Shown here: positions 22,704 to 24,860 of the stretch, piece after piece
Position numbering within the stretch: position 1 is the first letter of the stretch
How the letters are laid out: every line of letters starts with the position of its first letter
Virus record (IMG/VR): IMGVR_UViG_2627853638_000001
Location: 1 to 25,512 of that record
DNA from: a virus
Lineage: Duplodnaviria; Heunggongvirae; Uroviricota; Caudoviricetes
Length of the DNA stretch: 25,512 nt
Direction: 5' to 3' (one strand)
Translations under genes and position numbers: made by a program
The notes under the pieces: generated by a model
Databases searched by the model: none
The model's input: the letters and a program-made list of their open reading frames with translations, nothing else
Told to the model about the DNA's origin: nothing

Positions 22704-24860
22704 ATGACATTTATCGGCCCTTCCCCCTCTGTTCAGGACAAATCAGCCAGCACTGATAATACCAACATCAACGGCGAAGACATGACTGAGATTGAGGAGA
22801 GCATGCTTCTACCTGTCTCCGGTCAGGAACTGCCCATTCGTTGGCTTGCTCAACACGGCAGCGAAAAACCAGTAACGCACGTTTCACGCGACGAACTCCA
22901 GGCATTACACATTGCACGGGCTGAAGAACTACCGGCTGTTACTGCCCTGGCTATTTCGCATAAAACCAGTCTGCTCGACTCGCTGGAGATTCGCGACCTC
23001 CACAAACTGGTTCGTGACACTGACAAAGTTTTCCCTAATCCTGGTAATTCAGACCTGGGACTAATAACTGCTTTTTTCGAAGCATACTTGGACGCTGACT
23101 ACACTGTTCGGGGCCTGCTGACAAAAGAGTGGATGAAAGGAAATCGTGTTTCACGCATCACCCGCACGGCTTCCGGTGCTAATGCTGGTGGTGGGAACAA
23201 AACCGATCGCAATCCGAATTTAGTACACACCCTCGACACACTGGATGTGGAGATTGCAGCAGCCACACTTCCGATGGATTTTAATATTTATGAAATTCCG
23301 GGCAGCGTTTATCGTCGCGCAAAAGAAGTAGTCCTGAAAAAAGAAAGTCCGTTCAAAGAATGGTCCGCAGCACTTCGTGCACCCCCGGGTATTCTGGACT
23401 ATTCCCGCGCCGCTATTTTTGCACTTATCCGAAGCGCACACCCTGAATTTTATCACTACCCGGGACGCCTTCAGGGGTATATCAACGCCTATTTGACGGA
23501 AACTGATCACGAGAACCCCAGCAAGGAAACTCTCACAGCTACCCGGCATACGCCGGAAAAAGATATCCTGGAAGAAATTAACCGCGAGGTGGTTACTGAG
23601 CGTGAAACAGAAGAAGAAAAACCACAACCATCTGACGCAATGGCAGGTGAACAGGCAACAACTGAAACAATGGAACCGGATACAACTGAACATTGCCAGA
23701 ACGCGCAGTCGCTGGATGCTCAGTCGCAGGTGAGTTCCGCTAACCAAGTAAAAGTCACCGCTGACGAAGTAAACAAAATTATGCAGGCAGCCAATATCAG
23801 CCAGCCTGACGCCGATAAGTTACTTGCTGTATCGCGTGGTGAATTTGTTGAGGGGATTAGCGACCCTAATGATCCGAAATGGGTCAAGGGGATCCAGACT
23901 CGCGATTCTGTGAACCAGAACCAGCATGAATCGGAACGGAACGACCAAAAAGCGGAACAAAACAGCCCAAATGCGTTACAAAACGAGCCAGAAACGAAAC
24001 AATCCGAACCAGTAGCGCAACAGGAACCGGAAAAAGTCTGCACCGCCTGCGGTCAGAGCGGTGGCGGCAACTACCCTGATTGTGGCGCGGTGATGGACGA
24101 CGCAACATACCAGAAAACATTCGATGAAGAGAATCAGGTTGAAGTTCAGGAAAATGATCCGGAGGAAATGGAAGGCGCTGAACATCCACACAAGGAGAAT
24201 GCTGGCAGCGCTCAGGACCACGCCAGCGATAGTAAAACTGGCGAGACGGCAGATCCCTTAATTACGGTGAATGGTCATCACGAAATCACATCCACCAGCA
24301 GGACGTGTGACCATCTAATGATCGACCTTGAAACCATGGGAAAAAATCCTGATGCCCCGATCATCTCAATAGGTGCAATATTTTTCGATCCGCAAACCGG
24401 AGATATGGGACCCGAATTTAGTAAGACTATCGATCTGGAAACTGCTGGCGGAGTCATTGATCGGGACACCATTAAATGGTGGCTTAAGCAATCACGCGAA
24501 GCGCAATCTGCCATTATGACCGATGAAATCCCGTTAGATGATGCACTGTTACAATTGCGGGAATTTATCGACGAAAACTCCGGTGAATTTTTTGTTCAGG
24601 TCTGGGGAAATGGAGCCAACTTCGACAACACGATTTTGCGCCGTTCATACGAACGGCAGGGGATCCCCTGCCCGTGGCGTTACTACAACGATCGCGATGT
24701 ACGCACAATCGTTGAGCTGGGGAAAGCCATAGACTTCGATGCCAGAACGGCTATTCCATTCGAAGGTGAGCGCCATAATGCACTTGATGACGCTCGTTAC
24801 CAGGCAAAATACGTTTCAGCTATCTGGCAAAAACTGATCCCGAGTCAGGCTGATTTTTAA
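22704..24860 (+). CDS. RecE-like N-terminal and linker region fused to a C-terminal DnaQ-like (DEDDh) 3'-5' exonuclease domain; 5' end probably truncated by IS1
   Basis: C-terminal motifs MIDLETMG (Exo I), GNGANFD (Exo II) and HNALDDARY (Exo III). Acidic linker and [16 protein letters not shown] zinc-ribbon-like motif. The upstream part resembles the dispensable N-terminal region of Rac RecE as I recall it. The track ORF start lies inside IS1, so the true start is uncertain. Confidence 0.5.

Follow-up and report, generated by a model that had tools for sequence, protein, structure and literature searches.

The subject of this analysis is an exonuclease gene at one end of a 25,512-nucleotide stretch of viral DNA (positions 1 to 25,512 of IMG/VR record IMGVR_UViG_2627853638_000001), the whole of which is called the window here. 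The gene lies on the + strand, ends at 24860 and starts either at a TTG at 22650, within a copy of the insertion sequence (IS) IS1, or at an ATG at 22704. It is followed by xis and a fragment of int, and on the far side of IS1 are a repressor gene and a remnant of ydfA (Table 1). Its identity and its truncation are both almost certain: it is the gene that closes the early-left (dicB-type) operon of a Qin/Tritos-like lambdoid prophage, in a copy that has lost its 5' end. The intact relative, the 813-aa protein WP_001544673.1, combines an N-terminal scaffold of the RecE type, an acidic linker and a C-terminal exonuclease domain assigned to the DEDDh class. Here we describe these modules, the deletion that shortened the gene, and what the intact protein might do.

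The truncated exonuclease gene and its modules

Two Pfam families account for the ends of the window protein. PF06630 (Exonuc_VIII) matches aa 17-94 (E=1.6e-25), and PF16473 (Rv2179c-like 3'-5' exoribonuclease) matches aa 537-708 (E=5.2e-68, 228.7 bits with a cut-off of 27). PF16473 is covered end to end (profile positions 2-177 of 177). The PF06630 match is limited to profile positions 109-203 of 203, and the N-terminus is therefore cut. The PHROGs 'exonuclease' families phrogs 20376, 2082 and 607 are matched as well, their best stretches starting at aa 328, 331 and 1 with E values of 4.5e-203 to 7.4e-254. As sequence matches, all of these are far beyond chance level.

The earlier note on this DNA had described the N-terminal and linker regions as resembling RecE of the Rac prophage and the C-terminal domain as a DnaQ-type nuclease, and both descriptions hold. 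In a BLASTP comparison of the intact protein with Escherichia coli K-12 RecE, aa 58-616 correspond to RecE 50-592 at 59% identity (E=0) and nothing aligns beyond. The homology stops before the RecE nuclease, a PD-(D/E)XK domain (DUF3799, PF12684) at 615-850, and a canonical RecE nuclease in the C-terminus is excluded. PF16473 stands in that place in the intact relative, in which PF06630 is found with E=6.7e-36, and DUF3799 is absent by Pfam from both the window protein and the intact relative. The NCBIfam equivalog for RecE (NF007259, exodeoxyribonuclease VIII) is matched by the window protein over profile positions 96-603 of 877 only, at 764.8 bits against a cut-off of 1269; PF06630 is present, DUF3799 is not, and there is no adjacent recT.

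The same boundary is seen in the DNA. Blocks 88-97% identical to K-12 recE occur at gene nt 383-768 and 1654-1753, and identity drops to about 45% from gene nt ~1849 (window ~24267), at the edge of the nuclease domain. This collapse in identity marks a recombination joint at the domain boundary, of the kind usual in lambdoid mosaicism. A swap of nuclease domains, as the earlier note had proposed, is supported by this pattern, but the resulting architecture is very widespread and already annotated. The shared part extends to the zinc ribbon and a conserved 12-residue block, and both genes are found late in the early-left operon, close to xis and int. They differ in how they end: RecE has a 5'-3' nuclease of the PD-(D/E)XK type and is followed by recT, whereas the window protein has a DEDDh domain and no recT behind it.

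The C-terminal domain was examined by sequence and by structure prediction. In a sequence search of the PDB the only matches were the structures of T4 DexA (exonuclease A), 8KEL and 8KEN (E=2e-6). The intact protein was modelled with AlphaFold2 from an alignment of 99 sequences, and aa 630-810 of the model have a predicted local distance difference test (pLDDT) score above 95. When this model was compared with the PDB by Foldseek, DexA (8ken/8kel) was again at the top (E=1e-8), followed by RNase T, Orn/REXO2, ERI, 3'hExo and Cap18, with 47 matches at E<=1e-3. In an alignment with DexA and 11 family members, the catalytic residues D7, E9, D119, H186 and D191 of DexA correspond to D636, E638, D736, H786 and D791 in the numbering of the intact protein. 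The Exo I (DxE), Exo II (D) and Exo III (Hx4D) motifs are all present. The five residues are kept in 13 of the 14 aligned family members, the other having Gly at the last Asp, and all five are present in the window copy, where their codons are D 24324-26, E 24330-32, D 24624-26, H 24774-76 and D 24789-91. On profile, residues and predicted fold (RNase H-like, DnaQ), the domain is assigned to the DEDDh (DnaQ-like) Rv2179c/DexA family.

DexA is thus the nearest solved relative by both sequence and fold (TM score 0.65-0.72 normalised to DexA). It differs in being a stand-alone 227-aa protein with extra loops, in an identity of about 21-23%, and at two sites: W152 of DexA is Tyr in the window protein, and the region of D169 cannot be aligned. 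Rv2179c of Mycobacterium tuberculosis, the founder of PF16473, belongs to the same Pfam family. It is a single-domain bacterial protein for which RNA substrates have been reported.

The scaffold of the modelled protein consists of a small alpha/beta domain (aa 1-100), most of which is lost from the window copy, and a helical domain (aa 120-395); pLDDT exceeds 90 over most of each. No fold relative of the scaffold model was found in the PDB or BFVD. The linker (aa 400-625) is predicted to be largely disordered and is acidic, with short structured pieces that include the zinc ribbon; pLDDT is below 50 over 399-447, 492-536 and 563-625.

The IS1 deletion and the intact gene

When the window was compared by megablast with 5,426 complete E. 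coli genomes, many E. coli prophages matched it on both sides of the IS1 copy next to the gene (copy B), with about 1.8 kb more in between. The intact prophage taken as reference is in NZ_AP022261.1 (locus L001). Its genes are, in order, a cI/DicA-like repressor, ydfA, ydfB, ydfC, dicB, ydfD, the exonuclease gene for WP_001544673.1, a DUF4224 xis, int and tRNA-Ser. The dicF gene, which phage Tritos and K-12 Qin carry between ydfC and dicB, is unannotated in this locus. Over the retained part, 712 of 718 residues (99.2%) are identical to WP_001544673.1, there are 10 nt differences, and the flanking xis, int and cI-like repressor genes are alike. WP_001544673.1 itself is annotated as "exonuclease / 3'-5' exoribonuclease", falls in PHROG 2082/607 and has the Pfam architecture PF06630+PF16473.

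To the left of copy B, ydfA breaks off after 19 nt; to its right, the exonuclease gene resumes with the last base of codon 82. Positions 6397-8194 of L001 are nowhere in the window, which is collinear with L001 on either side. A deletion of about 1.8 kb has taken most of ydfA, then ydfB, ydfC, dicF, dicB, ydfD and codons 1-81 of the exonuclease gene. This is the N-terminal loss that the earlier note had suspected, and the search for full-length homologues supplied the intact N-terminus in WP_001544673.1. The same note had seen no target duplication at this IS1, and comparison of the flanks (ATCGATCTTG and CTGCAACCG) confirms that they share none.

Is copy B the trace of a deletion or of an inversion? 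Copy B lacks a duplication, the 1.8 kb is absent and the flanks are collinear; copy B therefore marks an IS1-mediated adjacent deletion and not an inversion. A second IS1 copy (copy A, 17207-17974) is 100% identical to copy B, is in the opposite orientation and has a perfect 9-bp duplication (TCAGGCGGC). Copy A is a simple insertion and serves as an internal control for the absent duplication of copy B. An inversion between the two inverted copies was considered and is ruled out by the collinearity, by the absence of the 1.8 kb from the window and by copy A's own 9-bp duplication.

The exact junction of IS1 and the exonuclease gene occurs in none of the 5,426 complete E. coli genomes. It does occur in CP000036.1, which we take to be Shigella boydii Sb227, and in related contigs. 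A 718-aa protein identical to that of the window is found on CP000036.1 and many further contigs, and int is split there too.

Table 1 Features of the exonuclease gene and its surroundings in the window
Feature	Position	Strand	Remarks
cI/DicA-like helix-turn-helix repressor gene	21160..21579	+	starts the early-left (dicB-type) operon region; matches 'helix-turn-helix domain-containing protein', L001 5661-6080
ydfA remnant	21877..21895	+	first 6 codons (MDTIDL), cut by IS1
IS1 copy B	21896..22663	- (insA/insB)	768 bp, terminal inverted repeats; no target-site duplication
Remaining RecE-type N-terminal scaffold	22664..23618	+	codons 82-400 of the 813-aa protein; PF06630, 59% identity to RecE
Longest ATG-started open reading frame	22704..24860	+	718 aa; Met is codon 96 of the intact protein; stop 24858-24860
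Acidic linker, predicted mostly disordered	23619..24293	+	codons 401-625, net charge -29; common to RecE and the 823-aa YdfE-type variant
CxxC...CxxC zinc-ribbon motif	24039..24083	+	codons 541-555; Cys552 is Tyr in the window (TAC, 24072-24074)
recE homology breakpoint, GCAGATCCCTTAATTACGG	24249..24267	+	RecE-like upstream; downstream PD-(D/E)XK in RecE, DEDDh here
DexA/Rv2179c-family DEDDh 3'-5' exonuclease domain (assigned)	24306..24848	+	codons 630-810
xis-like gene (DUF4224)	24919..25122	+	Pfam PF13986, E=7.7e-13; annotated in L001
Tyrosine integrase N-terminal fragment	25122..25424	+	100 aa; int broken in the lineage

A further allele of the gene is found at the same place in other prophages. 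Phages Tritos and mEp460 encode an 823-aa protein (the P0123 type) with a different N-terminal module; from gene nt ~1358 on, its DNA is 92-100% identical to the window gene in most 100-column windows (85% in one). The K-12 Qin pseudogene ydfE (locus L006, 10079-10999) corresponds to the first 256 aa of this allele, is 99% identical to it and is cut by IS2. Like the window copy, ydfE lies after dicB-ydfD and before int and is truncated by an IS element, but it has kept its N-terminus and lost its DEDDh end, and is thus the mirror image of the window copy. The locus has been truncated independently by IS elements, in K-12 by IS2 with loss of the 3' end and in the window by IS1 with loss of the 5' end. 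That ydfE might be the same gene as that for the 813-aa protein was rejected, BLASTP having found no match between them: the locus is the same, and the N-terminal module of ydfE is different and not RecE-like.

Six of the 10 nt differences between the window copy and the reference, counted over 718 codons, are non-synonymous. The changes D230V and T322P replace residues that never vary among 116 intact relatives, and C552Y hits a zinc-ribbon Cys kept in 115 of the 116. These private substitutions would fit relaxed constraint, although their numbers are small. A crude consensus promoter scan found no σ70-like site on the + strand between IS1 and the ATG at 22704; the sole promoter-like site nearby is on the opposite strand, within the end of IS1. 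Since the promoter-proximal part of the operon and 81-95 N-terminal codons are gone, the window copy is most likely silent, a pseudogene in a decaying prophage of Shigella type. As the most likely dead remnant of a ubiquitous and annotated prophage gene, it has little weight in itself.

The fusion in other genomes and its possible role

The intact gene is extremely common. The DEDDh-coding segment (window 24200-24860) is present at a coverage of at least 80% in 4,055 of the 5,426 complete E. coli genomes (75%), in up to 7 places per genome. A protein homologue search returned nothing but proteins with PF06630+PF16473, which bear the names 'exonuclease' or '3'-5' exoribonuclease' and were near-identical E. 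coli sequences. Both the gene family and its architecture are already known to Pfam, NCBI and PHROGs. In the library searched, literature searches on Rv2179c-like proteins, PF16473 and YdfE found no paper on the fusion of scaffold and DEDDh domain.

A wider search covered 1.84 billion representatives at 50% identity and gave 7,827 matches at E<=1e-10, mostly to stand-alone proteins of 180-250 aa. The fusion was found in 17 of the top 150 representatives, which puts the number of 50%-identity clusters that contain it at 17 or more. In the more divergent fusions the identity of the scaffold goes down to 25-30% and that of the nuclease domain is 52-60%. The fusion of scaffold and DEDDh domain is old and recurrent, and is not peculiar to the locus in the window. 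Ten other scaffold proteins were classified by Pfam: seven have DUF3799, two have no recognisable nuclease and one has a RecT fragment. The two without a Pfam nuclease domain, P0137 and P0220 (814 and 775 aa), have long C-terminal regions and may be the nuclease-free 'RecE-2' proteins mentioned in PMC12315714. In the remaining protein, P0204 (756 aa), the RecT-family fragment (PF03837, aa 562-610) is in the same open reading frame as the scaffold, which could be a real fusion or an artefact of frameshift or assembly.

The genomic context of the fusion was examined in the intact E. coli prophage, in the viable phages vB_EcoS-640R1, Tritos and mEp460, and in the contigs of P0126, P0134, P0140, P0149 and P0155. 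In all of these except P0155 the fusion gene is the last early-left gene and directly precedes xis and/or int. The Rac prophage has recE and then recT. There is no room for such a partner at this place in the window, where xis (24919) follows the stop codon (24860) after just 58 bp; the absence of recT at this place had been pointed out in the earlier note, and no gene for a single-strand annealing protein (SSAP) was seen in any of the contexts examined. Neither an SSAP nor a Gam gene is annotated in the complete Tritos genome. In these contexts the interval from the repressor to int holds no SSAP, SSB or Gam gene, and by the criterion of PMC12315714 this is not a Rec module. That paper does mention sporadic DnaQ-type nuclease genes near int, which it did not count as members of Rec modules (PMC12315714). 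In the early-left operon of viable phages like Tritos and mEp460, which have no Rec module, the fusion gene is the sole gene for a DNA transaction, and it bears on how phages of this kind recombine and replicate (PMC12315714).

Chi sites (GCTGGTGG) were counted in two of these sequences. In the window 4 are on the top strand and 8 on the bottom, and the exonuclease gene contains two of these (23184 top, 24292 bottom); in Tritos one strand has 9 and the other 2. Tritos thereby recalls the 'no Rec module, Chi-rich' class of lambdoid phages and may be linked to it (PMC12315714).

What might the intact protein do? Its gene would be transcribed together with ydfABC-dicF-dicB-ydfD upon prophage induction or infection. 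Two-metal DEDDh chemistry, using D636, E638, D736, H786 and D791, would then remove nucleotides from free 3' ends, and the substrate would most likely be DNA, as it is for T4 DexA. The scaffold would presumably bring either kind of nuclease to a shared target or partner. Binding of RecT by RecE reportedly takes place in the nuclease domain. The fusion lacks this domain, and no SSAP gene was seen in the contexts examined; its action would therefore be independent of a phage annealing protein. The 3'-5' polarity would follow from family membership and from experiments with DexA (PMC12153337). We put the chances at about even that the intact protein attacks DNA ends as a 3'-5' exonuclease during the phage lytic programme, independently of an SSAP. 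For the locus as a whole the best explanation, which we consider probable, is a truncated copy of a three-module protein that, when intact, would be a 3' exonuclease independent of an SSAP.

Several observations weigh against this explanation. The remnant keeps an intact frame of 718 codons only 10 nt away from the intact allele, and the identical truncated protein recurs on many contigs; a protein product is for these reasons still possible, as read-through or outward transcription borne by IS1 could yield a protein without aa 1-95. The promoter scan was, as stated, a simple consensus search. For the fusions of scaffold and DEDDh domain, activity, polarity and substrate all derive from the family to which the domain is assigned, and the founding member Rv2179c having been described as an exoribonuclease, an RNA substrate is possible. 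In addition, a 3'-5' exonuclease destroys the 3' tails that are needed in recombination, and a role in that process is consequently not obvious.

Might the protein instead trim the 3' ends of RNA, either of phage and host transcripts or of the precursor of the operon's small RNA DicF, as an exoribonuclease like Rv2179c would? The gene is downstream of dicF and co-oriented with it, RNA is the substrate of the structural neighbours RNase T, Orn/REXO2, ERI and 3'hExo, the Pfam family takes its name from the Rv2179c 3'-5' exoribonuclease, and NCBI calls many copies '3'-5' exoribonuclease'. The NCBI names, however, have been carried over from the name of the Pfam family and not from experiments. 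The nearest solved relative by sequence and by fold is a DNA exonuclease, T4 DexA, and RecE, which has the same kind of scaffold, is a DNA enzyme, so that an RNA substrate is in our view unlikely. Slightly more doubtful still is a superinfection defence of the HREX type, in which the DEDDh domain, like that of EcD, would degrade T-even DNA modified with 5-hydroxymethylcytosine (5hmC) and so exclude competing phages. Plasmid-borne EcD digests T4 DNA and protects against T4, and homologues of DexA are most abundant in Escherichia (PMC12153337; Kang et al., NAR 2025). EcD, itself a DexA homologue from Escherichia, shares its DEDDh family with the window domain, whose catalytic residues are conserved, and the presence of the gene in 75% of E. 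coli genomes is what would be expected of useful prophage cargo. EcD may nevertheless be a stand-alone DexA-like protein, and no RecE scaffold has been described for it; judging by the primers used for its cloning, it starts with MIDTET and ends with TIPETY, which makes it a different protein. Of the residues proposed to recognise 5hmC, W152 of DexA aligns with Tyr756 and D169 falls in an indel that has no reliable equivalent. Asp708, the equivalent of the DexA tetramer residue D90, is retained (it is Ala in EcD), the gene is within a repressed early-left operon and not in a moron-like unit with its own promoter, and the PADLOC defence models gave no match.

A match to EcD (HAK9828821.1) was also sought directly. 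None of 270 collected proteins starts with MIDTET or ends with PETYD. A 20-nt exact scan of genome contigs for EcD gave one match, inside a metal-ATPase gene of an Acetatifactor metagenome-assembled genome, and this was rejected as due to chance.

The least probable of the alternatives, and one to which we attach very little credence, is a true analogue of RecE that would carry out annealing recombination with an SSAP encoded elsewhere, such as the RecT of a co-resident Rac-like prophage. About 560 aa are in common with RecE at 59% identity, and many E. coli strains have several lambdoid prophages, with up to 7 copies of the domain per genome. Yet no SSAP gene was seen in any of the nine places examined, the complete Tritos genome among them, the nuclease domain that is said to bind RecT is missing, and digestion in the 3'-5' direction would leave 5' tails, the wrong substrate for lagging-strand annealing of the RecT/Red-beta type. 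The reading we prefer remains that of an SSAP-independent 3' exonuclease.

The scaffold raises a question of its own. Ever since RecE was first described, its N-terminal region of over 550 residues has been without an assigned function (PMC11611040). This region is found in front of either of two unrelated nucleases, of predicted opposite polarity, or of no nuclease, has been kept at 59% identity and is predicted to be well folded. That a well-folded and conserved scaffold is joined to differing nucleases or to none argues that it has a function independent of nuclease chemistry, and RecE and the DEDDh fusion form a natural pair of proteins with which to find that function. A more speculative proposal, which we think improbable as a whole, is that the RecE-type N-terminal region is an autonomous and portable targeting module, used by lambdoid phages with a 5'-3' PD-(D/E)XK nuclease and RecT, with a 3'-5' DEDDh nuclease and no annealing protein, or on its own. 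In Chi-carrying phages without a Rec module, the DEDDh form would be the enzyme that processes ends, trimming 3' ends so that recombination during growth would be left to RecBCD and RecA of the host.

Decay of the prophage and other features of the window

The prophage shows several signs of decay: two copies of IS1, an IS3-family element, an ipaH gene, fragments of tail-fibre genes and a broken int. The IS3-family transposase orfB (rve domain) at 13893-14711 (+) lies among fragments of prophage tail and DUF968 genes and adds to the evidence of heavy IS-driven decay. The ipaH gene (7294-8937, +) encodes an IpaH-type effector with LRR_TTSS and a NEL E3 ubiquitin ligase domain (PF14496, E=1e-76). 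It sits in a stretch of low GC content (38-46% over roughly 5.0-8.5 kb), and it points to a host of Shigella type.

Gene calling splits int into pieces of 100-105 aa and/or 214 aa, and of the four contigs compared (L016-L019) one, L017, has an IS3-family element called between them. With int broken, the prophage is probably unable to excise by its own integrase. Near the start of the window, a LytTR response regulator and a 5TM-LYT/GAF histidine kinase form a pair at 2704-5120 (-), and a DUF1307 gene is at 1673-2146. This region looks like chromosomal flank and not like prophage.

The 58-nt spacer between the exonuclease gene and xis contains a strong hairpin (24871..24906, +) with a stem of about 14 bp, an 8-nt loop, a folding energy of -20.8 kcal/mol and z=-4.2, and no U tract follows it. 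This could be a putative element of RNA processing or stability, or a binding site for a protein.

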